Source: a virus
DNA length: 64,000 bases
IMG/VR virus record: IMGVR_UViG_3300034272_001701
Location: 48,473-112,472 of that record
Direction: 5' to 3' (one strand)
In this document: piece by piece, positions 8,900 to 26,375 of the stretch
How positions within the stretch are numbered: the first letter of the stretch is position 1
Layout of the letters: every line of letters starts with the position of its first letter
Position numbers and translations under genes: made by a program
Notes under the pieces: model-generated
What the model was told of the DNA's origin: nothing
What the model saw: the letters and a program-made list of their open reading frames with translations, nothing else
Databases searched by the model: none

Positions 8900-9323
8900 A
8901 TTTGTTTTTAATTTGTTCATATATTATTTTTGCCCATTTTTCTGCATCTTGTTTGTCAACTTTTATATCGTACTTTTCCGGTGATACAAATATTTGATTG
9001 GTATCTGTATACCTGCTTTCATCTATGGTATCTACCCAAATAACAAAATTAGCATCAAAATTATCTCTCATGACTGGTAGTGGACAAACAAAATCGCATA
9101 TCACACAATCACTATTCATTTTGTCTGCCAGTTCTCGCATTCTAACGCTTTGTCTAATACGTCCTTCGACGCTAAAGTCCCAATCATCGTATGCTTGTCT
9201 GACTAGGTCTGCGTTAAACCATTCTACAGTTTTGTTGTCGTCCTGTATTAAATTGCGTAATGCTTCGGCCAATGTAGTTTTACCAGCACCGGGTAGGCCC
9301 ATGATCAAGATCTTGATTTTCAT
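8883..9323 (-). CDS. Adenylylsulfate-kinase (CysC)-like P-loop kinase, short form
   Basis: Walker A GLPGAGKTT, NADLVR, DFSVEGRIRQ, DFVCP..R. It appears to lack the CysC lid segment. Confidence 0.75.
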   Translation of the reverse strand: MKIKILIMGLPGAGKTTLAEALRNLIQDDNKTVEWFNADLVRQAYDDWDFSVEGRIRQSVRMRELADKMNSDCVICDFVCPLPVMRDNFDANFVIWVDTIDESRYTDTNQIFVSPEKYDIKVDKQDAEKWAKIIYEQIKNKYERKV

Positions 9324-9877
9324 ATTTTGTCAAACCATAACATTATGCTACACCTTGCTAAATCGTCTGGTATATCATGTTCTCTACCATGCATTACAGT
9401 GTATCCTTTATCAAAGAACCATCCATAATTATCTCTAAATGGCAATTGAAATAAAATTTCTTTGTTATCGTTATAAATTGTAGTACCAATAAATGGATAC
9501 TCTTTGTCTGAAATATAAATTTGAGCTAGGTATACACTTCCTTCGTTCTCATAGTGCGGCGCTAGTGTACCAAATCCAGCAAAATCAATCCACAAATCAA
9601 TTCCGGTATTTTGTACCTTGATTCCTAATAGGTGTTCAAGCTGTGTTAGTAAACTAGAAGAAATTACAAAATTTTTTAATGCATTGTACTTTTCGCTTTG
9701 TCCTTGATAAACATATCGTGGTCGCCCTTGTGCCCACTCAGGTATTTTCCAATCTACACTATCTGTTGTAAATTCATTGAATAATTTTTTAATTTTTTCG
9801 TGTATATCTTCGGGCAAAAATTCTTCAATTAAAAAAACTTTTGACCCAGTTGCTATGTTTACTGTATTAACAATCAT
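9320..9877 (-). CDS. Putative 2OG-Fe(II) oxygenase
   Basis: HxE (PHYE), a distal His (VMHG) and Arg (RCSI), in double-stranded beta-helix order with a GTTIY strand. Confidence 0.6.
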   Translation of the reverse strand: MIVNTVNIATGSKVFLIEEFLPEDIHEKIKKLFNEFTTDSVDWKIPEWAQGRPRYVYQGQSEKYNALKNFVISSSLLTQLEHLLGIKVQNTGIDLWIDFAGFGTLAPHYENEGSVYLAQIYISDKEYPFIGTTIYNDNKEILFQLPFRDNYGWFFDKGYTVMHGREHDIPDDLARCSIMLWFDKI

Positions 9878-11355
9878 GAGTGTACCTTTACACCATATCT
9901 TTGTTCAAATCTGTCTGCATCTGCACGATTGTTTACCATGGGTTCACCTTTGATATTTAAACTGGTATTGAGCAACATAGGGCAGTCCGTTAATACAAAC
10001 CATTTCTCTAATAGTTCCCTAATACCCGAACCATCTCGCGGAACTGTTTGTACTCTACTGGTGCCATCAACATGACAGATAGCAGGAAACAAATCAGGAC
10101 GCCGACAACAAGCGACTGACTGCATATAACGGCTATTAGTCCACCCAGGGCGGAAATCAAAGTACTCAGCAGCCATCTCTTCCAGTACAACAGGGGCAAA
10201 GGGTCTAAATTGTTGTCGTTGTTTAATTGCATTCACCTGATCCTTTATATTTGCGCCACGTGGGTCTGCTAACAAACTTCTATTTCCTAGTGCCCTTGGT
10301 CCAAATTCAGCGCGGCCGCTAGCAACGCCAACAATACCATCAGACAGTAAACCGTCCAATAAGGCGTTAACTGGATATGCACCAGGTATAAGGTGCCCAA
10401 GGTAAGCATCCACCCAACGAAGGCGACCACCATACGCAAGGGCTGCTGCGCCAAGACTCGAACCAGCGTCGCCCGGATTTGGCATGATCCAAATGTTATC
10501 AAAGTATTCTCCTAGGTTTCTATTTGCTAGACAGTTTAATGCAACACCGCCCATGTAAACAAGATTAGTACTCCACTTAAAGTCTCTTGCTCTACGCATT
10601 ACGTTGTAGATTAAATTTTCTGCCACTTGTTGTGCAGCAGTGGCCGTGTCGGCATCTTGGACTTTGTAGATACCAGTATGCCAACCAGTGTGCAAATTTT
10701 CTTTAAAAGTTATTTTCCATTCATTGCTAACCAAATCGTGCTTTAAATGTTCCTTATAACCGTGGTCGCGACCATAAGCTGCCATGCCCATTAAGATATA
10801 TTCATCTTCGTTGGGTTTGAGACCTACTTTTTGTGTCATGGCACTATAAAATAATCCTATGCTGTGGGGATATCGTTGAGTCCATAGTCGCTTGTATTGT
10901 GCTCGGCCACGACTATCGTATTTGGCACCCCATATGCTGATAGTATCCCATTCACCAATGGCATCAATAACTACTACCGTGGCTCTATCATAAGGACTGG
11001 TTTGAAATCCTGCTGCTGCATGACTCTGGTGATGACTGTGTGTGCTATAACTGGGTATGTGTGCGTATCCACCAAATTGTTCTGTCAAAATCTTTTGAGT
11101 GGATAACTTGTTCCACTCAACGCCTTCACCACTGTACAGTCTGCGTAGTTGTTTCTTCCATGGTGTTTCGTAATAAGCAACATGATGTACAGGTGAATAA
11201 TTCATTACATCATCCATTAACGCACGACAGATATTGGCGTCGTTCTTTATTCCGCTATAGCGTTCGCTATGAGCAGCAAACAAGATATCGCCTTGTGTAT
11301 TAATTACCGTGGCAGCGGCATCATGAAATCCAGCCGATATTCCTAATATATTCAT
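9874..11355 (-). CDS. NodU/CmcH-family O-carbamoyltransferase
   Basis: Start MNILGISAGFHDAAA (ATG 11355). Motifs SERYS, HHQSHAAAG, VIDAIGE, GGVALNC, PNPGDAGSSLG, EFGPRALGNRSLLADP, FRPFAP, HVDGTSRVQTV and LLNTSLNIKGEP. Confidence 0.95.
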   Translation of the reverse strand: MNILGISAGFHDAAATVINTQGDILFAAHSERYSGIKNDANICRALMDDVMNYSPVHHVAYYETPWKKQLRRLYSGEGVEWNKLSTQKILTEQFGGYAHIPSYSTHSHHQSHAAAGFQTSPYDRATVVVIDAIGEWDTISIWGAKYDSRGRAQYKRLWTQRYPHSIGLFYSAMTQKVGLKPNEDEYILMGMAAYGRDHGYKEHLKHDLVSNEWKITFKENLHTGWHTGIYKVQDADTATAAQQVAENLIYNVMRRARDFKWSTNLVYMGGVALNCLANRNLGEYFDNIWIMPNPGDAGSSLGAAALAYGGRLRWVDAYLGHLIPGAYPVNALLDGLLSDGIVGVASGRAEFGPRALGNRSLLADPRGANIKDQVNAIKQRQQFRPFAPVVLEEMAAEYFDFRPGWTNSRYMQSVACCRRPDLFPAICHVDGTSRVQTVPRDGSGIRELLEKWFVLTDCPMLLNTSLNIKGEPMVNNRADADRFEQRYGVKVHS

Positions 11356-11974
11356 TAATGTGTTCTGCTGTTCGTTGATGTCCAAGTTCCAAAGGATGTC
11401 CTCTTGGGCCTTTAGGGCATTCACCGACCCAATCAACCATTGCTTGATTAGGCCATCCTATAAAATATTTTTTATCAATTTGATCTATTAGATCGTTGTT
11501 TTTTATATCAGATCTTCTTGTGTCTTGATGATTTCCAAACGCATCGAACATTAGATAAGATTTGTTATGTATTTTTAAAAAAGACTGTAAAAGTATAACA
11601 TTTAATAAGTATTGTCTATACAAGTAATCATCATTATGGTGTCTACTGTAATAGTCTGTTATGTCTGCTCTCCACGAATATTGATGTTTTCCAGGAACAT
11701 TAATTCTTCCTGGCCAAATATCAAATACATCTATTTCATCGGCTATTTCAATTCTATCAAAATGTGTCCATGCAATAATTATTATGTCGTAATTATCAAC
11801 TTGCTCTACTGCTGTCCTTACAATTTGACTGTTTCCCCTTCCGGGGCGTCCTAAGTTTGTTAAATTAGTGTCAAGGGAAACCGATATTAAACTAGGCCAC
11901 GCAGAAATCTCTGAATTTATTAATTCGTCACCATGAGTAAAACTGTCGCCGACCGTTAATAATCTTTTTTTCAT
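11321..11974 (-). CDS. SGNH/GDSL-like hydrolase-fold protein
   Basis: GDSFT, WP, NLGRPGRGN, IIAWT..R and C-terminal HPLELGH. Confidence 0.65.
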   Translation of the reverse strand: MKKRLLTVGDSFTHGDELINSEISAWPSLISVSLDTNLTNLGRPGRGNSQIVRTAVEQVDNYDIIIIAWTHFDRIEIADEIDVFDIWPGRINVPGKHQYSWRADITDYYSRHHNDDYLYRQYLLNVILLQSFLKIHNKSYLMFDAFGNHQDTRRSDIKNNDLIDQIDKKYFIGWPNQAMVDWVGECPKGPRGHPLELGHQRTAEHINEYIRNIGWIS

Positions 11975-12072
11975 TTGTAAATGAAAGGATCTCGTTTACG
12001 AAGTTCGCGTAATTTGCGTCGATATTTAATTTCTAATCGTATTCTATTCCAAATGTTTTTTAACCATGTCAT
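11971..12072 (-). CDS. 33-aa basic peptide MTWLKNIWNRIRLEIKYRRKLRELRKRDPFIYK (SxtK-like ends), below the ORF-track cutoff
   Basis: Translated by hand. It fills the only gap in the operon, with an ATGA overlap to 11974 and an overlap with the stop at 12044. Confidence 0.75.
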   Translation of the reverse strand: MTWLKNIWNRIRLEIKYRRKLRELRKRDPFIYK

Positions 12073-12835
12073 TGAATTTCTCCTGGATTAATTCTGCTGC
12101 GGCCACGTGTGCTTGTTCTAGAGGATGCGTGGCGCCAATTGGGTATTTATTTTCTAATGCCCATTGATAAAATCCTCTAGGATCTGTAGTTTCATTACTT
12201 TTTGTACCAGGCGGAAACCAAAACCAATTTTTATCATCTATTTGAGATAGTAAACTTTTTATATTTTCGTCTGGATTACTTACTGTAAAGTTATATAAAA
12301 TTTTATTATCAACGCAAGTGAACAAATAAGGAACCTGTACATTTGTTAAATAATTTTGCAAATATACAATTTCTTTGAGGCTGGAATACACCTCCCAATA
12401 TTCTCCACTGCCGACATGTTTATAAAATGTTTCTGTGAAATGATAAAGTCCTGTATGTTTGGCTCGATTAAGACTTTTAAAATGGTCATTAATCACGTCG
12501 TCTTTTTTAACCTTGAGTTCTTTTTTAATAGTTTCTGTTTCTTTGGCTGTCCATGGTGTAATTGCACACCATTCTCTGGTTCGTTGGCCGGTATCATACG
12601 CGAATTTAAATTCATATCTACCCGGGAAAGACCAATTCACAAATACAAAAATTTTATTTGGTAAATTTTTGTTTACCTCATTAATTACTCGTCTGGCTAT
12701 TCCGTCATTTCCGATACCGGGCCATGCTACGCATCGATAATTATAATTTTTGCTTATTAATGCAGCGAATGTATTATCCGGGGATTGTAATTCGCTGCCA
12801 TACACAAAACTATCACCGCCGGCTACTATAATCAT
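12044..12835 (-). CDS. SGNH/GDSL-like hydrolase-fold protein
   Basis: GDSFVYG, AWPGIGNDGIAR, VNWSFPGR.E and C-terminal HPLEQAH; paralog of 11321..11974. Confidence 0.65.
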   Translation of the reverse strand: MIIVAGGDSFVYGSELQSPDNTFAALISKNYNYRCVAWPGIGNDGIARRVINEVNKNLPNKIFVFVNWSFPGRYEFKFAYDTGQRTREWCAITPWTAKETETIKKELKVKKDDVINDHFKSLNRAKHTGLYHFTETFYKHVGSGEYWEVYSSLKEIVYLQNYLTNVQVPYLFTCVDNKILYNFTVSNPDENIKSLLSQIDDKNWFWFPPGTKSNETTDPRGFYQWALENKYPIGATHPLEQAHVAAAELIQEKFNDMVKKHLE

Positions 12836-13967
12836 ATCCAGGTTTCATTATATCAATTTGCATCTGTTTGTATTTGTAATCACTCCAGCAATAATCAAAT
12901 GTATTACTGATTCCATCAACTTCAATTTTATAAATGTCAAGATGATTACTTAATATTTGTTGTATTGTTTGTTCGTGTAAGGTTCCAAAACTGAAACTTA
13001 GATTAACTTGTCCTAGCGACAGATATCCTAAACTTAAATTAATATCACCGGGATCTTTGTTGTTGGCTATCAACCAATTATTGAATTTATCAATTTGTGT
13101 GTTGTGCCACTCGTGGGGGCCACCATACATTACACTTTTTCCCCACTCAATATCAAATTCTCCGCTGTAATATTTTAATTCAGTAATAGCTTCGCATACT
13201 GTATCAGTCAATGCCGGAGCACCTTCATCTCTAAATACTTCAAATAGAGTTTTACCAATTTGAGTCCAATGCATGTATACTCCGCCGAATGCTCTGTTAA
13301 ACCCATTAGATAAGAATCCTTCTCTATGTTCGTTGCTTAATTCAATTCTGTCTGCATGAAGAAATGTAGTTATTTGACTGGGTCTTATCCATTCAGGAGC
13401 AGTTGCCTGCTTGCGTTTACTTAAACATAGTGTTTCAATTTCATGGCAAAGGTTATTTAACTGTCTTATTGCATACTTGGTATCGTAATCGGCAAATTTG
13501 TAGTACAGACTCAACTGATCTACTGTACCCTGCAAAATTTCAAAATAATTATGCAACCTATTCATTATGCCATGTTTAATACTCAACCCTAAATTAGATT
13601 CATTCCATCCAATTGGATATTCGTCACCAAACTGCACACTTTCTGGTGTAAAATAATCCTCAATGATACAAGGTTCTAATCCATTATCCTGCCAAATTTT
13701 AGTTCTATTAAAAATATTAATTCTATATATGGCATCATTGAGTTCTTTACATAGATAGTTTAAATTTCTAGGAGTGTGAGGGAATCCCATAAAACAAAAA
13801 TTTTTTTCAATTAATTTGTTTTTAATTAATTCTTGTTTTAGTGCTTGCGCCCAATCTTGTGCTAACTTGGTATCATTTAATTCTATTAGATATTCAAGAG
13901 TATCTTTTTTGTCTAACGGGTTTCTTAATACAACACTAACTGATCGAATTCCACCACTCATATACAT
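12813..13967 (-). CDS. Hypothetical protein in the modification operon
   Basis: 384-aa ORF overlapping both neighbours, with His-containing motifs (NRLHNYFE, NNLCHEIE). No family recognised; exact start uncertain. Confidence 0.7.
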   Translation of the reverse strand: MYMSGGIRSVSVVLRNPLDKKDTLEYLIELNDTKLAQDWAQALKQELIKNKLIEKNFCFMGFPHTPRNLNYLCKELNDAIYRINIFNRTKIWQDNGLEPCIIEDYFTPESVQFGDEYPIGWNESNLGLSIKHGIMNRLHNYFEILQGTVDQLSLYYKFADYDTKYAIRQLNNLCHEIETLCLSKRKQATAPEWIRPSQITTFLHADRIELSNEHREGFLSNGFNRAFGGVYMHWTQIGKTLFEVFRDEGAPALTDTVCEAITELKYYSGEFDIEWGKSVMYGGPHEWHNTQIDKFNNWLIANNKDPGDINLSLGYLSLGQVNLSFSFGTLHEQTIQQILSNHLDIYKIEVDGISNTFDYCWSDYKYKQMQIDIMKPGYDYSSRR

Positions 13968-15231
13968 CTGCTCTCTTTGATAATATTTCGTCCATGGTTG
14001 TTGACTGTGTACGAATAGATTCTAATTTTAACACACGAGCCCGGCCTCGAGCAATACCTGCACGGTACGCCTCTTCACCATATTGCTCTTGAAAGGTAGG
14101 GCGAGTTTTTAGTTGAACTAAGATATCCTTTAACGGACCGGCTACTCCGGCGTTTATGATTTCATCTACCCATGGATCTAAAACGGATCTAGGTAGGGCT
14201 AAAGGTGACATAACTATGTCCGGACTAAAACTAAAGACAACCTTGGCCAGGATGTCAACGCCCAAATCGTCGGCCAACTGCTGCATATTTTTAACTTCAA
14301 ACATACCCGGGAGAGTAAGTGTAAAGTCCAATCTCATTTGCCTTCTGTGCGTTGAGAGGTTAATTCCTTCCTTAAAATTTGTAAGCCATTCCGCAAAATT
14401 GAGGCCTGTTCGGATATACTCTCCAATTGTGCCTGTACCGTCGATGCTGGCACAAATTTGCCAATCGCGGACATGACTAAGTATATCCCTATAAAGATTA
14501 CAACCTCTATAATTAACACGGCTGAGATTAGTATTGTATCTAACATAAACATTTTTTCCATCCCCTAACTCTACTATTCTTTTCATGTACCTCCAATGCT
14601 GTTCATACATTAAAGGTTCACCACCTACCCAGTACACTTCTTCCACACGGTGGTCCTCTACCGCTGCTGCGAACTCGGCTTCAATTTGAGTTGTTTGGAA
14701 ATGTTCAATTTTGTGTTTGATTTCAGGCTTCATCCATGTATTTTTTGGATTAGACCAATCGATCATTTGGTGCTGACGTTGCTCGCTTTCCCACGAGCTA
14801 GACAGCATGTCGCCGCACATACGGCATTTGAAATTGCAGAGATTACTAAATCTGTAATCCCAGCTCACAGGCTTCATGGTCGTGTAGCCCGAAGCGTCAG
14901 TTGTTTCTACTACTTGTTTGTACTTATTACCAAACAGGTTATTAAAATAACTGCGGTAAACACTGGTATTCAACAGTTTATCATTACATACTTCGCACTC
15001 GGGTAATGTTTCGCCGGACAGCATGCGTTTTCGTACGGAGCGCATGTGATCACCGTTCCAATGTTCGTCCAGAGTGATAGGTATATACTTGCCAGAACCG
15101 GCGCTGGTGTCGATATACTGTTGAAAATTTTGTGCAGGCTCTCTGCTGGCACAACACATTCTGCGCTCAGTCTGCGGACTTAGATATGTGTGCGTCCAGG
15201 GTGCCATGCATAGTGTACTAGGTCTATTCAT
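13936..15231 (-). CDS. Radical SAM protein with N-terminal twitch-like domain (type A)
   Basis: N-terminal CMAPW..CC..CEVC, then CNFKCRMC (CxxxCxxC), SSSW, GGEP, YNTN and ASIDG. Confidence 0.9.
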   Translation of the reverse strand: MNRPSTLCMAPWTHTYLSPQTERRMCCASREPAQNFQQYIDTSAGSGKYIPITLDEHWNGDHMRSVRKRMLSGETLPECEVCNDKLLNTSVYRSYFNNLFGNKYKQVVETTDASGYTTMKPVSWDYRFSNLCNFKCRMCGDMLSSSWESEQRQHQMIDWSNPKNTWMKPEIKHKIEHFQTTQIEAEFAAAVEDHRVEEVYWVGGEPLMYEQHWRYMKRIVELGDGKNVYVRYNTNLSRVNYRGCNLYRDILSHVRDWQICASIDGTGTIGEYIRTGLNFAEWLTNFKEGINLSTHRRQMRLDFTLTLPGMFEVKNMQQLADDLGVDILAKVVFSFSPDIVMSPLALPRSVLDPWVDEIINAGVAGPLKDILVQLKTRPTFQEQYGEEAYRAGIARGRARVLKLESIRTQSTTMDEILSKRADVYEWWNSIS

Positions 15232-15898
15232 TTAAATACCTAGTTATTGAATCAAAGATTTGTTGTTTGGTATACATGTAAGGATATAACGATACCTTTG
15301 CAGAATATTGCCCGTTTAATTTTAAATTACTAAAAAACTTTTCTATTATTTCTTGATTACCAATTGGCTCTGATACCAAATTGGTTATTTGAATTTTATT
15401 TTTGATTGCGTTGTTAATATCAGCATCTAAGTTATTAAGGTCGTACCATTGTAAACAGTTATTTACATTAATTTTATCTAAATACAATTTATGTTTTAAA
15501 TCGTATAAAATATTTTTTTTGATATTTTTGTGTACCAACGCACCTAGACGTAGAACATATGCTTCGTCAAAATAATGCAAAATTTGTTCTTCGAGCCAAA
15601 GTCTATTACGCCCATAAGGAAAATTATTTCTTAATACACTGTCGACTGTTCCTAATAGCACAATCTGATCAATTGACGTTCTTCTTAAATTTTCAAAAAG
15701 AAGCCTTATATTATCAAAATCTTTTTCTTTGTTAGCATTTGCTTCTAGTCTGTTTCCACTTGGTGCAGCTACAAATACTTTAGTAAATGATTGTTTAGTT
15801 ATATCTGAAATATTGTAGGAATTAAATTCATGTGTATAATTAATTACCTGCTTTAGATAATTTCCTACAAGACCATTGGACCCTACGATTGCTATCAT
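15224..15898 (-). CDS. Short NAD(P)-dependent epimerase/reductase-like protein
   Basis: VGSNGLVG Rossmann motif, TVD, YGRNR and LRLGAL. Confidence 0.65.
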   Translation of the reverse strand: MIAIVGSNGLVGNYLKQVINYTHEFNSYNISDITKQSFTKVFVAAPSGNRLEANANKEKDFDNIRLLFENLRRTSIDQIVLLGTVDSVLRNNFPYGRNRLWLEEQILHYFDEAYVLRLGALVHKNIKKNILYDLKHKLYLDKINVNNCLQWYDLNNLDADINNAIKNKIQITNLVSEPIGNQEIIEKFFSNLKLNGQYSAKVSLYPYMYTKQQIFDSITRYLNE

Positions 15899-16827
15899 TC
15901 TATAAAATTTAAAATTTCATCTATTATTTCATCTTTGATTTTTTGTTTTATTAACTCTTTGTTGAAAAATCTTTGATGATTATGAGCAAGTTTTTGCTTA
16001 GTAAGCATATCCTCAAAAATATATTTTTTATCGTTAAATTGTTTAGTCAATCTTTCAATTTCTGAAACTACTTTCTCTAATCTTAAATTATCGTCGTCAA
16101 TAATATCATAAGATTCGTCAATTTGATGTCCAAAAGTTTCAAATCCTTGATCCTGGAGATATTTTAATGTTTCTTTAGACCCCCAAACTACAAAAGGATG
16201 TTGATGTGCAAGAGGTTTAAATATTTTTTCTGATACAAATGTTGGGTAGGTAGTAAAAGTTTCAACTACTACACTAAACTCTGTAGCATCGTACCAATTA
16301 GGGTTAAAATATCTTTGCCAATCTCCTTGTGAGTAATCTATGTCGTCATCAATAGTGATTCCCTGTTTAACATAACTGTATAATGCACGATCTAATAGAT
16401 TTTCAAGTTTGGCGTATATTTGGTCTCTATGTTTGCGTTTTAAGTGCATGAGCATTAAAAACGAATGTGTATGTTTTTTATTAGGAACATAACGATGATA
16501 TCCTAGATACTGATACCACAAGCTTTCATTATACCAAAGCCAATTTTTATTTCTAAGTATTAACCTATCTGTAATTTCGCTAGTTTTAGAAATGTCATTA
16601 TCCCAAAAATGATCTACTATTAATTTATAACCTTTGTCTACATATGGTTGATACCACGTTGCGCCGGGGTTAAAAAAATTAGTAATACAAACTGTGTCTG
16701 CTGCAGAATGGTTGCAGTTATGTTCATGGTAAATCAAGTTAAAATGATCACTGATTATGTCTACGATCCAGTCAGAGCAAAAACTATTGAGATCAAACTC
16801 AGAGACTAGTAAATTAATCTTTGCCAT
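15895..16827 (-). CDS. Putative glycosyltransferase (TEKIFKP family)
   Basis: SVVVET..FVSEKIFKPL..HPFVVWG..LKYLQDQGFETF..IDESYD; paralog of 7375..8514. Confidence 0.5.
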   Translation of the reverse strand: MAKINLLVSEFDLNSFCSDWIVDIISDHFNLIYHEHNCNHSAADTVCITNFFNPGATWYQPYVDKGYKLIVDHFWDNDISKTSEITDRLILRNKNWLWYNESLWYQYLGYHRYVPNKKHTHSFLMLMHLKRKHRDQIYAKLENLLDRALYSYVKQGITIDDDIDYSQGDWQRYFNPNWYDATEFSVVVETFTTYPTFVSEKIFKPLAHQHPFVVWGSKETLKYLQDQGFETFGHQIDESYDIIDDDNLRLEKVVSEIERLTKQFNDKKYIFEDMLTKQKLAHNHQRFFNKELIKQKIKDEIIDEILNFIE

Positions 16828-18028
16828 ATCCCATTACCACGGCTATTTCGGAATGAGATTCTAAAAAACTTTGCTTGCGATAGTGATCAGTTTGTTTCAT
16901 TTTAAATAAAAATTCTTCACCGCTAGATCCCTGACCTTGTTCGATAAATTTAATAATACGTAAAATTTCTGCACGATGCTTGGGGGTGAATGATCCTGAC
17001 TGTAATTTTTCTATTACAATCTTTTTTGCTTCCGGAGTCAAACTGTCTATACACATGTGCTTGGGATCATGAAGCATATTAAAATAGTGATCGTTGAATG
17101 TTTGTGTATTGATCCAATTGCATAACTCTTCTAGGTAGTAAACATTTTGTATGTTAACAGTCATGCACACCTGAGTGGTAATTTTTGCAGGATTTTGATC
17201 ACGTAATTCATGAAACTTGCGTATGTTTTCTGTGACCTCTGCCCAATGAGCACCATAGCGTTCGTATTCAAAACGTTTATCTATGTTGTCAATACTAAAT
17301 GCAATATCTACACGTTTGAAATGTTTCCACAATTCGTGTGCATCTGGCCATTGGGTTCCATTGGTATTATAATGTATATCAATGTTCTTTGCATAGCCTT
17401 GATCGACCGCATACTGTAATAGATCAAAATGCTCTTGAATCATAAACGGCTCGCCACCAGTAAACTCAAAATATTTGATATTGGGTAGCAATTCGCGTAG
17501 ATTATCCCAGAACGTTTGTGTTTTACGTGGCCAGGCACCCTGTTGTAGAAACTTGTATGCCAGATGTTCTTTTTTATTTGTTAGTTCCGGAATATAATCA
17601 ATTTCTTCTTGCGCCCAACGACTGCTGGACCAAGAGCCGCAAATGCGGCATTTGAGATTACAAATGTTTCCTAATTTTAAGTCCACAAACCAAAGCTGAT
17701 CTGGAGTATCATTTGTGTAATCAACCTTGTCTACTAATTCTTTTAATCTGATTTTACTGAATATGCGTTTGCTTGCACGACCTGCGTCTTCTTCTTGCCA
17801 ACAACGGTTGCAGGTGCTGGGCTTCTCGCCATTGCGAAATTGCTGACGTAAATTCTGCATGTATGTGCTGTTGTATATTGTCTGCAGGTCTGTTTCGTTG
17901 AGATCATATTTACGACCTGTGTTGTCGGTGATCTCGTCAACTGCCAAACAACACGGTCTAGCAGTTCCAATTGGACTAGTTTCGATACTGATCCAAGGAA
18001 GCATACATATTGTTTTAGGAAGACTCAT
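16814..18028 (-). CDS. Radical SAM protein with N-terminal twitch-like domain (type A)
   Basis: CMLPW..PCC..CNRC, CNLKCRIC, SSRW, GGEP, YNTNG and FSID. Confidence 0.9.
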   Translation of the reverse strand: MSLPKTICMLPWISIETSPIGTARPCCLAVDEITDNTGRKYDLNETDLQTIYNSTYMQNLRQQFRNGEKPSTCNRCWQEEDAGRASKRIFSKIRLKELVDKVDYTNDTPDQLWFVDLKLGNICNLKCRICGSWSSSRWAQEEIDYIPELTNKKEHLAYKFLQQGAWPRKTQTFWDNLRELLPNIKYFEFTGGEPFMIQEHFDLLQYAVDQGYAKNIDIHYNTNGTQWPDAHELWKHFKRVDIAFSIDNIDKRFEYERYGAHWAEVTENIRKFHELRDQNPAKITTQVCMTVNIQNVYYLEELCNWINTQTFNDHYFNMLHDPKHMCIDSLTPEAKKIVIEKLQSGSFTPKHRAEILRIIKFIEQGQGSSGEEFLFKMKQTDHYRKQSFLESHSEIAVVMGYGKD

Positions 18029-19475
18029 TTAATACTCGCAGCTCTGTAAAAGTTTCCCAAAAATTTTCTTTCCGCACATCATCTAATTTTTTAATTTCTT
18101 CTTTGAATCGAGGAAACAAATGACTATTATTTGTACTCTGAACAAACTTTAACACGCTCTTAAATCCATTGGTTGCTCTTTTCAAACTATCTAATGGCTC
18201 AATCCATTCTATATGTTTTTCGTATGCCGGTATAATTACTTCTTTCTTGAACCACTCTGGAAAAATATCAGCTCTATACCATTCTGGGCTTAAACACAGA
18301 TTGATATTCACATCACCTGGTCTGATTAATCCCAGTTCAACCCACTCTCTATGAAAGTCTAATACGTGCAAGATATTCATAGCACTGACTGTAGGGTTAA
18401 TATGAAAGTCAACATGTGGCACTTCTTTTTTCATTGCCAATCTATTTTCAATTGCTTGTTCCCAAACAGTTCCTTTACGTATTAATTCTGCACGGGCGCC
18501 GCTGGCATCTAAACTTGCCCCTAGGCTCACACTCTTAAATTGTTTCCAATAATCAAAAACATGTTTGTCTTTAAATCTTAATTCGCTAAAATTAGAATTA
18601 TATAACAATCTAACATCTGTTTTGCCGTGTTCAATCAATTTCTCTAACATGAAATAATGTTCTTTCATAATTAGAGGTTCGCCGCCAGCAAAATAAACTT
18701 GCTCAAGATAAGGAATATGAGGGATCATCTGCTCAAGCATGGCATCTTCGTCACCTGCGGTATATTCAACCCTAAGCATCTCACGGCCTAATACATCAGG
18801 CTTACGATTATACAATTTAACATGATCGTTATACCAATTACTGCTAAAAATAGGTCCGCATGATCGACAACTAAAATTACAAAGATTACTGAATCGAACA
18901 TCCCAATATCTTAATTTAAATTCAGGATGAGTGCCGTCCTCTAGTGTAAGATCTGTTTCTTCAATATTATGGCCGTAGTTTCTATTAGCATCATTACGCA
19001 TACTAAAGAATCCGTTTTTTTCGTGTTCGTAACACTTAGTGCATTCAACTGATTCTTTGTCGTTGAGCATGTTGATACGAATTTTTTTATATGATTCTTG
19101 ATTCCATATTTCTTGCATTGTGTTCTTACGCATATCTCCAACTGGGTGCCAGTAATCTCCTAGACAGCATGGATACGCACGACCATCCGGGAACGCATGA
19201 AAATGCACCCACGGTAACATACAAAACGTTTTACTTTTTGTAAGTTTATGTAATTGATCTTGTGTGAATTGTTTGTCATCTGCATACATTGGCATCAATG
19301 ACAAATAATCGTATTCTTTTTTAAATATATATTCTGATTTTTTTTCTAATTCTAACAATTCTTTTTTAATCTCTGGCTTTTTAATTTTCACATCAGCTAT
19401 ATAATCATCGTAACTAGGCCAATCGGCGCCAGCAAATTTTTCATAAAAATCTCGTTGCAATTTGTTATTCTTCAT
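18015..19475 (-). CDS. Radical SAM protein with N-terminal twitch-like domain (type A) and an ~80-aa N-terminal extension
   Basis: CMLPW..PCC..CTKC, CNFSCRSC, SSNW, GGEP, YNSN and ASLDA. Confidence 0.9.
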   Translation of the reverse strand: MKNNKLQRDFYEKFAGADWPSYDDYIADVKIKKPEIKKELLELEKKSEYIFKKEYDYLSLMPMYADDKQFTQDQLHKLTKSKTFCMLPWVHFHAFPDGRAYPCCLGDYWHPVGDMRKNTMQEIWNQESYKKIRINMLNDKESVECTKCYEHEKNGFFSMRNDANRNYGHNIEETDLTLEDGTHPEFKLRYWDVRFSNLCNFSCRSCGPIFSSNWYNDHVKLYNRKPDVLGREMLRVEYTAGDEDAMLEQMIPHIPYLEQVYFAGGEPLIMKEHYFMLEKLIEHGKTDVRLLYNSNFSELRFKDKHVFDYWKQFKSVSLGASLDASGARAELIRKGTVWEQAIENRLAMKKEVPHVDFHINPTVSAMNILHVLDFHREWVELGLIRPGDVNINLCLSPEWYRADIFPEWFKKEVIIPAYEKHIEWIEPLDSLKRATNGFKSVLKFVQSTNNSHLFPRFKEEIKKLDDVRKENFWETFTELRVLNESS

Positions 19476-20827
19476 AAATTAATATACCATTCTGCCAAGT
19501 TTGGAAACGTTGTAATAAAGTTTTTATCTCTACGTTGATCGTATTGTGTATAAAACTTTTTAAAATCTTGTTGTAGTATTTGCTGTTCTGCAGCGCCTAA
19601 ATGTGGTGTCTTTACTACGTCTAAATAATCAATAAGTCTTTGCAACTGATTTAATTCCATTTCGTGAATTAATGTATTATTTTTATTCTTGTTATACCAA
19701 TTTTCTAAATTGTTTTTGTGTTGAGTTCTAATTTCGTCAGGCAGTACCAAAGGACTTTGAAAACTTGGAAATCTCAATATATTTAAAGTAAAAAATGGAT
19801 AGTTTTTTCCATAACATGTTTTCCATTCTACTATACAATCTAAAAACTCTGTTAAACTTTCTAAACAAAGTGCATTAATCGTACACATGATGTGTAGACC
19901 GCGCAATTTATTGCCTACTTGATGATCTAGTATCAACTCTATACTATCAGCCCAATCGTTCCAAACCAATCCGTCTCTAATATACTCTGCATGACTGCCG
20001 ACGCTTTCATTACTAGTGTATAGGTCAATGGGTGCGTCCACACTTGAAAATAAACGATCGATATCAACTTGTGTTCCTAGGTTAGAGTTAATTGCCAGTC
20101 TTGTTTGGCTTTTTCCTTTGTTTTCTTTAAACCAATCAAGCAGTTTCCAGGTATAGCCTGACATCAAAGGCTCACCACCGGTAATACGTAATTCAGTTAA
20201 GGTTCTGTGGAGGTCCGATTCCCACCATTCAAAGAAGGCCGTGATGTATGGGTTATCTTCACCAAATTTAAAAAGCTGCGAACTGTCATGGCTATGAGTA
20301 AAATGATTCCTACCATCAGACACCAGGTCCACGTAGGGTCCGTTAGTGTTGATGTCTTTGACCCAAGTGCTACTGAATGCAGGGTTGCAATAACTGCAAG
20401 CAAACTGACAAGTGCGATCAAAACTGATTTCAAGAGTGCGAAGATTGGCATCTTCTGTTGGCGGTGTTCTGAATGCATGATCAAGATCCTCATCTGAAAA
20501 TAAAACTGTTTTATAGACTCGGTCGCTAATATTGTCTCTTCCAATGTCTTCGATCTTCCAACAATACTCACATCCTGCAGGTCTTTCGCCTGCCTGCATT
20601 TGTCTACGCTCCTCTTTCTTTTTTGGGGTATTGTGCAATGCTCGAGGATTTGCTTGCACATCTGCTACTTCAACCTTGTGCGGTAATGGATGATGACAAC
20701 TAGTGGTCATGCCGCTGCCTAACCATATAGTAGCGTTGTACCATTTTGCTCCGCAGAAGCTTTCTGACTTGATGTCAATTACTCTGCGTTTGTATTCTAA
20801 ATCTGTTTCGTTATTAATTTTGGGCAT
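19472..20827 (-). CDS. Radical SAM protein with N-terminal twitch-like domain (type B)
   Basis: CGAKW..SCHHP..H..CEYCW, CQFACSYC, SSTW, GGEP and INSN. Confidence 0.9.
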   Translation of the reverse strand: MPKINNETDLEYKRRVIDIKSESFCGAKWYNATIWLGSGMTTSCHHPLPHKVEVADVQANPRALHNTPKKKEERRQMQAGERPAGCEYCWKIEDIGRDNISDRVYKTVLFSDEDLDHAFRTPPTEDANLRTLEISFDRTCQFACSYCNPAFSSTWVKDINTNGPYVDLVSDGRNHFTHSHDSSQLFKFGEDNPYITAFFEWWESDLHRTLTELRITGGEPLMSGYTWKLLDWFKENKGKSQTRLAINSNLGTQVDIDRLFSSVDAPIDLYTSNESVGSHAEYIRDGLVWNDWADSIELILDHQVGNKLRGLHIMCTINALCLESLTEFLDCIVEWKTCYGKNYPFFTLNILRFPSFQSPLVLPDEIRTQHKNNLENWYNKNKNNTLIHEMELNQLQRLIDYLDVVKTPHLGAAEQQILQQDFKKFYTQYDQRRDKNFITTFPNLAEWYINL

Positions 20828-22199
20828 GGTATTTGCATTCGTCCCAAAATTCTCGCATTTCTGGGAACGTTTCTAAAAAGTTAGTTTGCCTACGTTTATC
20901 GTGCTCGTTAAAGAATCTATAAAAATCAGCACGTTGTAGTTTAACATATTCCGGTTGCAATCGCCAACCTTCCTTCATCCAATCTACCACACGTTGCAGC
21001 CTTTGTACTTCATAATCTTTAAAACCTTGAAATGGACGATCTGGTGTTTCGACATTGAGTTGCATCCAATCTACTACATCTTGTAATCGTTTAACATAAA
21101 CTGGCGGTAGTATTTGTAGGCTTTGCCAAGTGGGTTGTCTCAGTATAGGCGTATCAAACCAAACTCGTTGATATGTTTTACTGTACAATAGGCGCAAGGA
21201 TAAAATATTCTGTAATAAACTTTGCAAGCCAATTACATTCAAATTACTCATTGTAATAATGAAAGTTAGACTATTTCTATTAGGAATTTTATCCAAATAT
21301 CTATGAACATTTTCTTGCACTCGATTATAGTCTAGTCCGTGGCGAATGTACTCTGACTGAGAACGGATTCCTGAATCTAAACTAACGTATTGCATAAAGT
21401 GTTCTATGTTGGTATCGCACAATCTTTTTACATAATCATGATACTGATCATATAATTTAGTTTCCACACTAAAATTGCTGGTCACATCAATATGTAGATC
21501 AGGTTTAGGAAATGCCAACACATAATCAAACACTCGATATGTATTACGATCCATCAATGGCTCGCCGCCGGTCATCCTAAAGTGTTTTAACTTTGGATAC
21601 AGAGTTGGCCACCACTCCCAAAAGGCATCAACATATGGATTATCTTCTCGAACAGGGATAGGTCGTCTGCGACCGCTAAAATGGGAAGCATCATTGTGAA
21701 TAGTGGAAGTGGGATATCCTCCAAAACGTCCCACTTCATCACCCCAGCTACTACTAAACTGAGGACTGCAATAGGAACACTTAAGATTGCAAGCATGATT
21801 AAAATTGACCTCCACATAGGAAGGAGTAAAATCTCTATCACCAGCATCATGACTGTTAACAATCTCTGAAAAGTGTTCTGCTGCCCAGGGCTCTCCTGAA
21901 CGATAATGTCTATCACTTAAATTCCCCATATCTTCTTGTGTCCAACAATAACTACATTCTTGCGGTCGTTCATTACGCAGCATAATCTTACGCTGAGCTT
22001 TTTTATAGGGCGTATTATGTAATGCACTAGGATTGTCTTTCAACAATGCAGCATCTATTTCGTGTAAAGGAGGATGATAACAACTGTTGGTCAATCCTGT
22101 AGGAAGATGTAAACTGACCTGTTGCCACTTAGCAAGGCATAAGCTTGGTCCTAATCGTTCTTTTGCCTGCTCGGCAGCAGACATAAAATCACTCACCAT
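20814..22199 (-). CDS. Radical SAM protein with N-terminal twitch-like domain (type B)
   Basis: CLAKW..SCYHP..H..CSYCW, CNLKCSYC, SSSW, GGEP, VTSN and VSLDS; GTG start. Confidence 0.9.
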   Translation of the reverse strand: MVSDFMSAAEQAKERLGPSLCLAKWQQVSLHLPTGLTNSCYHPPLHEIDAALLKDNPSALHNTPYKKAQRKIMLRNERPQECSYCWTQEDMGNLSDRHYRSGEPWAAEHFSEIVNSHDAGDRDFTPSYVEVNFNHACNLKCSYCSPQFSSSWGDEVGRFGGYPTSTIHNDASHFSGRRRPIPVREDNPYVDAFWEWWPTLYPKLKHFRMTGGEPLMDRNTYRVFDYVLAFPKPDLHIDVTSNFSVETKLYDQYHDYVKRLCDTNIEHFMQYVSLDSGIRSQSEYIRHGLDYNRVQENVHRYLDKIPNRNSLTFIITMSNLNVIGLQSLLQNILSLRLLYSKTYQRVWFDTPILRQPTWQSLQILPPVYVKRLQDVVDWMQLNVETPDRPFQGFKDYEVQRLQRVVDWMKEGWRLQPEYVKLQRADFYRFFNEHDKRRQTNFLETFPEMREFWDECKYHAQN

Positions 22200-23122
22200 C
22201 CTTCTATCCTACGAATAACATCTATTTCGGTCATCATGATTTCGCTGTTGCGCTGGCCTGTACTATAGTGATGTTTAAAGAATTGACTTTGGTTGGGTGT
22301 ATACATAACAATAGGCAACCCTAATCTGGTAGTCAATGCACCTTCAATTCTTTCACAACCCTCTTCAGGGTCTTCTTTACTAAACATATCCCACAGTTTT
22401 TCTAATACATCAAAGTCTTGTACGTATTTGTAATCCCACCCTTCTAGCATGATCATAAATGTTCCCAGTCGAGCTCCGTACATAGCCCAATAACCATTTT
22501 CAACATCAGCTCCTACGCTATGCCATATACAAAGATGATCGTAGTTTCTTTTGTTAACACCTTCTTCAAATTCTTGTAGTGTAGGTTTGTGCCCTCTATT
22601 GAGACACATCTTTACGCCTTCTCTAAATCCAGCACGCCATGCCTGTTTGGCGCTACCATTAGGATATGTTGTACTATAACAATTGTGCATGGCAGTGTAT
22701 TTTGGATCAAAACAAAACTCAACAGCAGTTTCTTCGTCTCCACTACTGGCTTCGTGTGTACGCATATTCATTACAAAGTCTTTTGTCCAGCAACTTACAC
22801 CACCATTGCCATAACGTAGACCGTTTACGACATTTCGTGCCTTCCATCTAAAAACGTGGTCGCGATTCGTTTCGTTGAGCAATAATTGTAGATTAAAAAA
22901 TTCCGGGTCTGGTATATTATCACCATCAATAAGAACAAACCGATCAGTATCGCTTGCCTCTGCGGCTGCTTTGTGTGCTGCGTCAGATCCTTTAACACCA
23001 TCCACTCTCTTTGCCCATGGCACCATGTTTTGAATTTTGATCCAAAACTCTTCTTTCTTGGGTTCGTCGTACGTTAGAAAAATACAATCTAAATCTGCAA
23101 TATCAACTATTTGTTCGGTCAT
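22193..23122 (-). CDS. Putative GT-A fold glycosyltransferase
   Basis: IFLTYDEP, RVDGVKGSDAAHKAAA, FVLIDGDN (DxD), YGNGG and AWRAGFREGVKM. Likely start MTEQ at 23122. Confidence 0.6.
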   Translation of the reverse strand: MTEQIVDIADLDCIFLTYDEPKKEEFWIKIQNMVPWAKRVDGVKGSDAAHKAAAEASDTDRFVLIDGDNIPDPEFFNLQLLLNETNRDHVFRWKARNVVNGLRYGNGGVSCWTKDFVMNMRTHEASSGDEETAVEFCFDPKYTAMHNCYSTTYPNGSAKQAWRAGFREGVKMCLNRGHKPTLQEFEEGVNKRNYDHLCIWHSVGADVENGYWAMYGARLGTFMIMLEGWDYKYVQDFDVLEKLWDMFSKEDPEEGCERIEGALTTRLGLPIVMYTPNQSQFFKHHYSTGQRNSEIMMTEIDVIRRIEGW

Positions 23123-23477
23123 AATATTCAATTTCCAAATACTCTTCGTTTAATCCTAGCGCAACTGCTGCCATTCCTTTTACTACCGGTTGTCCTTGTG
23201 TTGATTTTTTTAATCTTACTTGGTCAGATGTTTTTGCATCTAATGTAATTAGTTTTTTATCTACTACACGTAGCAAAAGTGTGTTTGCTTTATGAAATAC
23301 GTCTGGATTATCAACTACAATATAATTATCTCCATCAGGATGATCCGTTTCACTAAACGCTGTTACTAGTCCATTTTTGTCATAATACATCCTGTATTCT
23401 TTGACCATAGGTAATCTTTTACGATCTTCCTCTTCAACTAATTTTAAAGCTTTATAAAACTCTTCTACAGGATTCAT
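23103..23477 (-). CDS. Hypothetical protein
   Basis: 124-aa ORF overlapping both neighbours in the operon. Confidence 0.7.
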   Translation of the reverse strand: MNPVEEFYKALKLVEEEDRKRLPMVKEYRMYYDKNGLVTAFSETDHPDGDNYIVVDNPDVFHKANTLLLRVVDKKLITLDAKTSDQVRLKKSTQGQPVVKGMAAVALGLNEEYLEIEYYDRTNS

Positions 23478-24294
23478 AATATTCTATCATTTCATCTTTA
23501 GCAAATTTTTTATCGTAATAGTGCAATGGGTGGTATTGATTAATGTTGTTGATTCTGATCATGCCATGATCAAATTCACTTACGTATACGTCTTCGAACA
23601 TATTACTTTCGTTAAAATTATTAATAGAAGGCTTCATGTGTACAAAATTAATAAAATCAGCTGACGGTATTGTACATAGTTCATCTCCGACTATTCTTGC
23701 TGCTATGGCATAAACAACATCTGTAGTAGCATATTGATCTCTACAATTTAATAAACTATTTTGTATAACTTCCCAATTGTTAAAAATTATTCGTGCGTAC
23801 TTAAAAAAGTCGGTAGCAGTTTGCGAATATCTAAAATACATTAGCCCATTGTAGGTATCCGGTAAATTATTATCATCAAATAATTTACGATAGCGTCGAG
23901 ACGAAGCCAACTTCTGTTGATAATTTCTGCAACCTGTACTTAATACTATATCACGTAATCTAAAAGCATGTATCCAATGATCGATTGATCTAGTAAACAA
24001 AAGATCCGATTCTAATTTAATTGTCTCTTTGTATGGAGTTAAGCCAAAAGCCAGATGCTCATAACCAAACGATCCATAGTCGTTGTTTGTTATTTCAATG
24101 ATGTGATCAAAAGTCTTTTTGTGTTCGTCGGTTAATAATTTTGCTGTTTCTGTGTTAACAACAACTGCACAGCTATTATTTTTTTGTGTGGCCTTGATAT
24201 TCAATGCCTGCAAATAGGCAAGCCGTAGATAATCTGTTTCTTCAGAATTGATTGCAAAAGTTAAAAATCCTAACTGTTCTTTATGCTGGCTCAT
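23452..24294 (-). CDS. Putative GT-A (GT8-like) glycosyltransferase
   Basis: DYLRLA, LTPYKETIKLESD (DxD-like ESD), YNGLMYF, TDVVYAIA and FVHMK. Confidence 0.6.
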   Translation of the reverse strand: MSQHKEQLGFLTFAINSEETDYLRLAYLQALNIKATQKNNSCAVVVNTETAKLLTDEHKKTFDHIIEITNNDYGSFGYEHLAFGLTPYKETIKLESDLLFTRSIDHWIHAFRLRDIVLSTGCRNYQQKLASSRRYRKLFDDNNLPDTYNGLMYFRYSQTATDFFKYARIIFNNWEVIQNSLLNCRDQYATTDVVYAIAARIVGDELCTIPSADFINFVHMKPSINNFNESNMFEDVYVSEFDHGMIRINNINQYHPLHYYDKKFAKDEMIEYYESCRRVL

Positions 24295-25075
24295 TTAATA
24301 ACTGTTCAACTAAATTTTCAAAATCGCTCGATTGTAAATATTTTTTACTCATGATGTGCAAATTAGTTCGAGGCACAATGTATGCTTTTGAATCATCTCT
24401 AACAATAAACTTAGAGTCCTGTAGTTCTATTTTGTTTATTGATTGATTAATTGCTAATAAACTTCCTGGGATCGTGGATGTTTGAGTTATATAGCCATTT
24501 ATGATAATATCAGCAATGGAAAATGCATAATCGTTTCTATAATTTCTTTCTCGTATATTAAACAATGCTCGATAATATGAATAATTTTTTTGTATTCTAT
24601 CTATTAGGTCAAAAAATAGTTTGGCTCTTGGTGTTTTTCTAAATGCAAATACTGTAGCCCATATGTAAGGTAAACTATTATCTCCCATTGTGTCTGCCCA
24701 TTCCGCTGTCAATGCATGACTATTTCTTTGTAATAAATAATCCCAATTGCATTTAAATATATCTAGTAGACTGTTATCCACCACAAGATAATCAACATCA
24801 ACCACCAAGGTTTCATCGTAAGGACTTAATTCATATGCACTGTGTCTATTAAAATTTCTCCACGACACAAAAGTATTACTATCAATATCAAAACGATTAT
24901 TTGTTAAATCGTTGTCTTTTGTATTTGTGATAAGAGTATATGGTAATTTAAGTTTTTGGCTAGCTACAGACAGTGTTTTATTTGCTATACTAACGTAATC
25001 TGTTGTTTCTGTGTTTAAGGCAAATGCAAGAATACCTCTAGAGTTTTCTAATTTTTTTGAGTTCTTCATAATCAT
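24281..25075 (-). CDS. Putative GT-A (GT8-like) glycosyltransferase
   Basis: DYVSIA, AYELSPYDETLVVDVDYL (DxD), WATVFAF, RNDYAFSIA and LHIMSK; paralog of 23452..24294. The start may be 25069. Confidence 0.6.
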   Translation of the reverse strand: MIMKNSKKLENSRGILAFALNTETTDYVSIANKTLSVASQKLKLPYTLITNTKDNDLTNNRFDIDSNTFVSWRNFNRHSAYELSPYDETLVVDVDYLVVDNSLLDIFKCNWDYLLQRNSHALTAEWADTMGDNSLPYIWATVFAFRKTPRAKLFFDLIDRIQKNYSYYRALFNIRERNYRNDYAFSIADIIINGYITQTSTIPGSLLAINQSINKIELQDSKFIVRDDSKAYIVPRTNLHIMSKKYLQSSDFENLVEQLLNEPA

Positions 25076-25352
25076 TGTGCCATTGATTCATTACTAACTG
25101 ATAATGCTGTTGTGCCTGGACCAAAAAAACTTGCCTATCAATTTTTATAGGGTTGTTATATGTGTCTTCTAAATATAATTCATCAACCGGCCAAGTTTTA
25201 ACAAACGCTATTAATTCTGGAGTTATCTTAAAGAGTCCGCCACAGTGTGCTAGATGCAAATCCGTTTGGATCTTTTCTCTCAAAATTATTTTGTTTTTTT
25301 GAAAGTCGGTGGCCTGTCTAATTTGATTTACTAAAAGTTCGACGTCGTTCAT
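25038..25352 (-). CDS. Hypothetical protein, first gene of the modification operon
   Basis: 104-aa ORF directly downstream of the promoter region at 25353-25419. Confidence 0.7.
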   Translation of the reverse strand: MNDVELLVNQIRQATDFQKNKIILREKIQTDLHLAHCGGLFKITPELIAFVKTWPVDELYLEDTYNNPIKIDRQVFLVQAQQHYQLVMNQWHNDYEELKKIRKL

Positions 25353-26364: not shown

Positions 26365-26375
26365 TCTCTAATTCC

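Follow-up and report, generated by a model that had tools for sequence, protein, structure and literature searches.

An array of five N-terminal-twitch radical SAM enzymes behind the tail-fibre genes of a jumbo phage, and its possible role in sugar tailoring

Why should a tailed phage keep five radical S-adenosylmethionine (SAM) genes close together, and what could their products make? The question is raised by 64,000 nucleotides of the IMG/VR virus record IMGVR_UViG_3300034272_001701 (positions 48,473 to 112,472; this whole stretch is here called the window, and coordinates without a prefix are positions in it). The window is the final 64 kb of a 112-kb viral contig whose completeness was estimated at ~31%. 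Phage genes seen were those for T4-like baseplate/VgrG and tail-fibre proteins and for a family-B DNA polymerase. Relatives of the phage reach 354-374 kb, and the source is therefore a jumbo tailed phage. The five genes were established as members of one recognised family with intact motifs, non-redundant, encoded in one operon and conserved. A sugar-related role, proposed in an earlier note on the window and inferred here from the phage and bacterial context, is the best-supported reading of their function.

Five minus-strand open reading frames (ORFs) were found exactly where the earlier note had placed five radical SAM paralogs. They were scored with the NCBIfam model NF033640 (N_Twi_rSAM, twitch domain-containing radical SAM protein; curated cut-off 170 bits, profile length 398) and are named here by subtype, in the order in which they are read:

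20814..22199, minus strand: B2, N_Twi_rSAM type B, 461 aa; NF033640 314.7 bits
19472..20827, minus strand: B1, N_Twi_rSAM type B, 451 aa; NF033640 295.3 bits
18015..19475, minus strand: A3, N_Twi_rSAM type A with an N-terminal extension of ~80 aa, 486 aa; NF033640 385.1 bits (residues 81-480)
16814..18028, minus strand: A2, N_Twi_rSAM type A, 404 aa; NF033640 350.5 bits
13936..15231, minus strand: A1, N_Twi_rSAM type A, 431 aa; NF033640 293.8 bits; two genes apart from the tandem four

As the earlier note had described, B2 to A2 are in direct tandem (overlaps of 4-14 nt) and the fifth gene is set off by two others. All five proteins were matched over their full length at 294-385 bits, with profile positions 1-2 to 385-398 of 398 covered, and no other family came near its own cut-off. 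The next-best NCBIfam models (viperin, MoaA, QueE, NrdG and the maturases of peptides that are ribosomally synthesised and then post-translationally modified, RiPPs) gave 15-35 bits only. The proteins did not cluster with a characterised housekeeping family such as NrdG or QueE, the outcome that the earlier note had set against its own proposal; the scores were far below the cut-offs for NrdG2 (16-21 bits, cut-off 131), QueE (26.5, cut-off 260) and MoaA (26-29, cut-off 284). RiPP maturase models scored 15-35 bits against cut-offs of 300-850. Assignment to a recognised and apparently uncharacterised N-terminal-twitch family thus stands. No paper naming the family was found. The family is large: a profile search of 1.84 billion cluster representatives returned 9,280 relatives at E <= 1e-30. 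NF033640 is a catalogue entry; it shares with the phage proteins an N-terminal four-Cys twitch domain followed by the radical-SAM core and a full-length match, whereas fixed multi-copy phage arrays are not in its description.

A sixth and more divergent copy, which shares the same layout, was located outside the window (G000:C1:13555-14709; 222.4 bits, above the NF033640 cut-off). Around it lie genes for a ferritin-like protein, an alpha/beta hydrolase and a class-III aminotransferase (G000:C1:13117-16432; L066:8117-11432). A phage ferritin adjoining an iron-sulfur enzyme may aid iron supply.

The motifs reported earlier were recovered by alignment and with Pfam. CxxxCxxC and GGEP are present in all five proteins, and the auxiliary Cys set is N-terminal to the core. 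In the numbering of the first protein the invariant positions are C8, W12, C27, C79 and C82 (a Cx18Cx51CxxC twitch pattern), C132xxxC136xxC139 and G203-G-E-P206 in the core, and in addition R67, N235, E271, R274 and R407. The conserved twitch Cys of B2 are C21, C40, C82 and C85, with the core set at C137xxxC141xxC144; those of B1 are C25, C44, C86 and C89, with C140xxxC144xxC147, and H45, H46 and H50 are also kept. Across 127 relatives the three core Cys and GGE were invariant and the Pro almost so. In type A, Pfam placed SPASM at the N-terminus (residues 8-83, 8-77 and 85-149 of A1, A2 and A3, the last with E 3.6e-12) and Radical_SAM behind it; in B1 and B2 Radical_SAM was the only domain reported.

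The type motifs are likewise real and kept within orthogroups (type A, C..PW / CC / CxxC; type B, CxAKW / SC[HY]HPxxH / CxYCW, plus an added HNT). The proposed division into two subtypes held in part: in a tree of 127 sequences B1 and B2 form a clade with support 1.0, while A1, A2 and A3 are a looser group (support 0.87). It had also been suggested that type B, being rich in His, may bind its auxiliary cluster in another way. This was not borne out, since both types keep all four twitch Cys and His ligation in type B is therefore not required; the additional Cys in type A and the His residues in type B more probably reflect differences on the substrate side. The N-terminal domain has four conserved Cys in all types and five in type A, a number compatible with one auxiliary cluster. 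The SPASM-type set for two clusters (seven or eight Cys) is absent from the five proteins, and no second CxxCxxxxxC-type set was found in them.

Because the twitch domain stands before the core rather than after it, N_Twi_rSAM is an order-reversed (circularly permuted) form of the ordinary rSAM-twitch enzymes. BtrN and anSME likewise combine a radical-SAM core with an auxiliary [4Fe-4S] domain. The BtrN twitch cluster is a fully ligated four-Cys cluster, which the Cx18Cx51CxxC spacing of the window enzymes resembles. They differ in that the auxiliary domain is C-terminal in BtrN and anSME and N-terminal here, and sequence similarity is negligible (BtrN, E 0.3). Sequence relatives with a solved structure were not found in a search of the PDB, where the best match was viperin (E 2.9e-6), over the CxxxCxxC region only.

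A2 was modelled with AlphaFold2 (pLDDT 92.3) as a radical-SAM core, and the model was compared with the PDB using Foldseek and VIA-align. The matches form a plateau of generic radical-SAM cores (TM ~0.35, Z 10-12), with SkfB (Z 12.3), BlsE (12.2), viperin (12.0), anSME (11.9; rmsd 3.9 over 217 residues), CteB (11.1), ChlB (10.8) and DesII (10.2) tied at the top. The structure thus confirms the fold without naming a reaction or a specific functional neighbour. BlsE and DesII act on nucleotide-linked sugars; they have no specific sequence relation to the window enzymes (16-38 bits against cut-offs of 400-450) and a different architecture.

The N-terminal extension of A3 bears a Y..G.DWP.Y.DY mini-motif (19401-19448, minus strand), which occurs once in the genome; about half of the A3 orthologs are without the ~80-residue extension.

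Conservation was assessed in 65 related viral loci (contigs) found by searching with one copy. The order B2-B1-A3-A2-(variable insert)-A1 was kept in 65 of 65, and many of these loci have one to three divergent copies besides. Identity between orthologs is mostly 55-88% (46-49% for a few second copies), and between the five paralogs it is 18-24%. Each of the five is its own clade in the 127-sequence tree (support 0.87-1.0): the B2 orthogroup is monophyletic with 64-88% identity across relatives, the B1 orthogroup has support 0.99, and that of A1 has support 1.0 with 68-85% identity. Judged from these comparisons, the copies are old duplicates, each retained by selection and non-redundant, and the separate conservation of the orthogroups argues for five different jobs. 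The enzymes appear functionally distinct, with motifs intact for catalysis at both the SAM site and the auxiliary site, and the sequential, distinct steps that the earlier note had envisaged fit this pattern.

Megablast of the 8.3-kb array region against GenBank phages gave no match. With tblastn, only distant multi-copy relatives were found in phages (Vibrio phages K566 and K567, Ralstonia phage RsoM2USA and Campylobacter phages). The surroundings of the relatives in K566, the sole context read, were mainly hypothetical proteins. In K566 (L070, 161.5-179 kb) and RsoM2USA (~127 kb) several distant radical SAM relatives are clustered amid hypothetical genes, and both cultured jumbo phages are possible laboratory models for multi-copy phage radical SAM arrays. 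A paper on the 'moraphage' jumbo phages (PMC12619734) makes no mention of radical SAM and offered no tie to the present lineage. Phage contigs mis-binned into metagenome-assembled genomes (MAGs) also carry the cassette: L112 (Fischerella), L140 (Chitinophagaceae) and probably L105 (Pelagibacterales). Evidence for this included matches to two proteins of the cassette described below (the DxD protein, 501 bits, and the cyclophilin-like protein, 610 bits), and it says nothing on the host.

Whether neighbouring copies act together was approached through natural fusions. Two- or three-module N_Twi proteins numbered 34 among the top matches of the 1.84-billion-representative search. They are 790-1203 aa long (P0124, P0136, P0133, P0125; L202:5614-8169), and some recur on many independent contigs. 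In all four fusions with both modules at least 39% identical to window copies, the modules follow the order of the genes (two are A3-A2, one is B2-B1 and one A2-A1). On independent contigs, three clusters of fusions were met repeatedly, with 11 members of 843 aa, four full-length members of 950 aa and four of 804-808 aa, and an A3-A2 fusion is an uninterrupted 851-aa ORF in the viral locus L202. The fusions show that neighbouring copies can work within a single polypeptide, in keeping with joint action on one substrate and perhaps with heteromers.

From this it might be argued, as the earlier note had also considered, that neighbouring copies are hetero-oligomers (e.g. B2/B1 and A3/A2) and not free-standing sequential enzymes, a reading compatible with any substrate. 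The translational coupling of adjacent genes through their 4-14 nt overlaps, the gene-order fusions, the recurrent clusters and the intact ORF of L202 speak for it. Fusions are rare, however (1 of 257 viral loci), and their high rank is a scoring artefact, as the bit score is doubled when two modules are present. Several of the clusters have a single member, of a kind that an indel at an overlapping junction could create, and a fusion shows that its parts act in one pathway, which need not mean that the separate proteins form a stable complex. The predicted complex of B1 with A3 scored 0.00 and speaks neither for nor against binding. Hetero-oligomers are possible and somewhat doubtful.

The genes around the array bear on its substrate. 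Between 25352 and 8459 the genes form a run of ~17 kb in which 18 of 19 overlap the adjacent gene. The single gap (69 bp) lies between two SGNH-like genes, in the region 11971-12072 (minus strand). A promoter and terminator scan gave chance-level results only. The conserved order, from upstream, is two tail-fibre genes, four genes of no assigned function, a DxD protein, the radical SAM genes with optional inserts, a cyclophilin-like protein, two SGNH-like genes, a carbamoyltransferase, a P-loop kinase and a dCMP deaminase. The features other than the radical SAM genes are as follows (loci are those of the 65):

25420..28025, minus strand: two tail-fibre-type genes, with a 549-aa protein bearing a Peptidase_G2 intramolecular-chaperone domain; both syntenic in 33-38 of 65 loci
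23103..25352, minus strand: four conserved opening genes of the operon (124, 280, 264 and 104 aa), each overlapping its neighbour; fixed order in 41-47 of 65 loci
22193..23131, minus strand: DGD (DxD) protein, 312 aa, the most conserved cassette gene; 69-90% identity, D69-G70-D71 invariant
15895..16827, minus strand: variable insert, 310 aa; in 29 of 65 loci, at times elsewhere in the array
15224..15898, minus strand: variable insert, NAD(P)-binding and RmlD/epimerase-like, 224 aa, N-terminal GxxGxxG; in 12 of 65 loci
12813..13967, minus strand: cyclophilin-like barrel with an inserted helical bundle, 384 aa, after A1; model pLDDT 82.4; in 58 of 65 loci
11321..12835, minus strand: two SGNH/GDSL-like genes, 263 and 217 aa, both with an N-terminal GDSF; in 40-44 of 65 loci
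9874..11436, minus strand: NodU/CmcH-type carbamoyltransferase (Carbam_trans_N E 3e-35, Carbam_trans_C E 6e-47, PHROG 1601 E 2.6e-91); in 49 of 65 loci
8883..9323, minus strand: small P-loop kinase, APS-kinase/KTI12-like (APS_kinase E 6e-10); in 40 of 65 loci

No Pfam or PHROG match was obtained for the four opening genes or for the 310-aa insert. More than 100 positions of the DxD protein are invariant across its relatives, and at least 536 viral contigs carry a relative; of the 59 loci in which the sequence extends far enough, 58 have N_Twi genes downstream. A sequence-profile search of the PDB gave no match for it. A neighbouring Atlas cluster was automatically named GT2-like, and a pooled scan of the unassigned cassette proteins returned Glyco_tranf_2_3 on four members (E >= 0.01), members that are not attributable to one gene. 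With its DxD motif, these matches suggest that the protein is possibly a GT-A-like glycosyltransferase. A domain related to the DxD protein is held by a 618-aa protein at 5520-7376 (minus strand). In the same pooled scan two or three members gave weak RmlD_sub_bind, Epimerase or NAD_binding_10 matches (best E 3e-4), and these we infer, from the Rossmann motif, to belong to orthologs of the 224-aa insert. The 217-aa SGNH-like protein matches DUF6071 (E 9.5e-10). Not far away, the opposite strand carries an NDP-sugar 4,6-dehydratase/epimerase and a DegT aminotransferase.

For the 384-aa protein no sequence family, no PDB sequence-profile match and no Foldseek match were found. Its model resembles cyclophilins at Z 9-10 over ~140 residues, with a predicted helical insert of ~130 residues at 62-189. 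A weak relative of this protein adjoins an N_Twi gene in the Pseudobdellovibrionaceae contig L092.

Bacterial relatives were then considered for the company they keep. A Methylomagnum plasmid carries a true member (174 bits) amid GT2 and GT4 glycosyltransferase genes, oxidoreductases, a UbiA prenyltransferase and an ABC exporter. An Azospirillum plasmid encodes a full-length relative that scores 118 bits, under the cut-off; it adjoins a carbamoyltransferase, FkbM methyltransferases and NDP-sugar enzymes, and the same stretch holds two further radical SAM genes. On a Bdellovibrionia chromosome (a 936-kb contig) two tandem N_Twi copies are followed directly by two GT2 genes.

The plasmid pBHWA1 of Brachyspira hyodysenteriae carries five radical SAM genes in direct tandem and two more, amid rfbF, rfbC, an epimerase and glycosyltransferases. 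The N-terminal halves of these proteins match NF033640 positions ~103-293 and their last ~70 residues match positions 2-76 (twitch), and from these swapped matches N_Twi_rSAM was recognised as the order-reversed form of the Brachyspira group. The pBHWA1 genes share with the window the five-gene tandem layout and the core and twitch parts. They differ in having the core first and the twitch last and in scoring 70-85 bits, below the cut-off of 170, so that they are relatives and not members; they are likewise uncharacterised. The pBHWA1 block has been tied to virulence, and a role in lipooligosaccharide biosynthesis or glycosylation was suggested by the authors (PMC4267127).

By motif, 120 loci were recovered from 185,579 species genomes, 107 of them with N_Twi-like ORFs, most of which are full length. 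These loci belong chiefly to Bdellovibrionota and Bacteroidota and include megabase chromosomal contigs. Two to five N_Twi copies occur in 26 of 69 full 8-kb bacterial loci, so that multi-copy arrays belong to the family as such. Of the families represented in 146 bacterial neighbour genes, GT2 (four, with three more in a related GT2-like model), GDSL (four, with two in a second model), PTA_PTB (four) and PhyH (three) were the most frequent. With hidden Markov models of the unassigned phage cassette proteins, hardly any counterparts were found next to bacterial N_Twi genes, apart from those on phage contigs mis-binned into MAGs. Taken as a whole, the bacterial neighbourhoods give moderate support to a link with carbohydrate.

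From the phage side, a sugar substrate is indicated by the carbamoyltransferase, the SGNH/DUF6071 proteins, the RmlD-like insert, the NDP-sugar dehydratase with DegT, and the linkage to the DxD protein; from the bacterial side, by the glycan-gene surroundings of the relatives in Methylomagnum, Azospirillum, Bdellovibrionia and Brachyspira. The reading preferred here, to which we give an even chance as regards substrate, reactions and destination, is that the five enzymes tailor, by radical chemistry and in successive steps, a carbohydrate structure that the operon makes. They would be co-produced from the translationally coupled ~17-kb operon that follows the tail-fibre genes, each with a SAM-cleaving [4Fe-4S] site (CxxxCxxC, GGEP) and one four-Cys auxiliary cluster site. 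The 5'-deoxyadenosyl radical would remove one specific hydrogen from the carbohydrate, either a nucleotide sugar or a growing glycan, and the fully Cys-ligated auxiliary cluster would relay electrons, as its counterparts in BtrN and anSME do. Oxidation, epimerisation, dehydration or C-C bond formation could result. The SGNH-like proteins may be esterases or acyltransferases. Five copies would mean successive, non-interchangeable steps leading to an unusual decorated sugar structure, probably on the virion (tail fibres) or on the envelope of the infected cell.

Several results weigh against this proposal. No glycosyltransferase above a curated threshold was found in the core operon, and no flippase, polymerase or sugar-nucleotide synthase inside the operon itself. 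The closest folds include peptide modifiers (SkfB, CteB, anSME) as much as sugar enzymes (BlsE, DesII), and the end of the operon adjoins nucleotide-metabolism genes. The bacterial neighbour tally is flat (144 families for 146 genes), its enrichment being weak and without a measured background, and the genes interleaved in bacterial arrays are mostly without a known family.

Some of these same results would suit enzymes that modify protein, introducing cross-links, epimerisations or other C-H changes into virion proteins such as tail fibres, in the manner of RiPP/sactipeptide maturases or anSME. The array stands directly behind tail-fibre genes on the same strand, SkfB, anSME, CteB and ChlB are among the top structural matches of A2, the cyclophilin-like fold encoded after A1 is one that is often peptide-binding, and a confirmed glycosyltransferase is missing from the core operon. 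RiPP maturases (SkfB, CteB, SuiB) are tied structural matches, and several radical SAM genes per cluster are common in RiPP pathways. Those structural matches are nevertheless tied with sugar and nucleotide enzymes. Unlike RiPP clusters, the array has no maturase model score above cut-off, all being far below; no RiPP recognition element (RRE) or other leader-binding domain was among the Pfam or NCBIfam matches of the five proteins, and no short Cys-rich or repetitive precursor gene was present in the array, where, in the tandem block, the overlapping genes leave a small ORF no space. The bacterial relatives, moreover, adjoin GT2/GT4 and sugar-nucleotide genes, not precursor peptides. Protein modification was for these reasons considered unlikely, although the cross-linking of fibre peptides is a live alternative. 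Hypermodification of phage DNA or of nucleotide precursors, in which the radical SAM enzymes would work on a group attached to a base or nucleotide, was considered improbable. It would account for the P-loop kinase and dCMP deaminase at the operon end, near thymidylate synthase and DHFR, and for the carbamoyltransferase; viperin, a nucleotide-modifying enzyme, is the best PDB sequence match and a recurrent sub-threshold NCBIfam match, and three Arg and one Glu are invariant in the five copies, suiting a phosphate-bearing substrate. The viperin match, however, is limited to the CxxxCxxC region, and the thymidylate synthase is a full Pfam match (E 2e-105) next to DHFR, so that ordinary dTMP synthesis is indicated. 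No hydroxymethylase or TET/JBP gene was found in the scanned parts of the window, from a genome only ~31% complete. The operon is physically continuous with virion genes, and the bacterial relatives are located in glycan clusters.

It is scarcely credible that the copies are redundant or decaying duplicates, or misassigned NrdG, QueE or MoaA housekeeping enzymes. Sub-threshold matches to the MoaA, QueE, NrdG2 and viperin models could be cited in favour, but these reach 15-35 bits where the cut-offs are 131-380, and NF033640 gives 294-385 bits. None of the five copies has lost a cluster Cys or GGEP, and each copy is its own orthogroup across the 65 phage contigs.

On the sugar-tailoring reading, a bold and quite unlikely extension would see the B2/B1 and A3/A2 pairs, which are found in nature as single fused proteins, as a phage radical assembly line that functionalises C-H bonds of a single sugar scaffold in several different ways. 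A multiply modified tail-fibre glycan (e.g. branched-chain, carbocyclic or cross-linked) without a described counterpart would result, and related, unrecognised chemistry by the same family would be expected in Bdellovibrionota and Bacteroidota.

Hundreds of giant aquatic phages keep five to eight copies as a fixed set right behind their host-recognition genes, and such a fixed array implies a chemical product that is costly and under selection, and that is probably located on the virion or on the surface of the cell. Identification of the product would assign a function to thousands of genes and could reveal new radical sugar chemistry and a new phage way of decorating particles or hosts. New here are the order-reversal link to arrays of the Brachyspira type, the survey of bacterial loci, the argument from the four Cys that His ligation is not required, and the naturally fused proteins.

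Two further observations concern the virion module of the window. The C-terminal part of a 1047-aa Gly-rich fibre/adhesin (28464-29000, minus strand) has a poly-Gly run followed by CKIIC and a helical domain; this C-terminus was considered as a Cys-repeat (CFI-box-like) peptide substrate and dropped, since the translations show no Cys-repeat pattern. Between the tail-fibre and baseplate genes, a single ORF of 4719 aa occupies 33444-47603 (minus strand).

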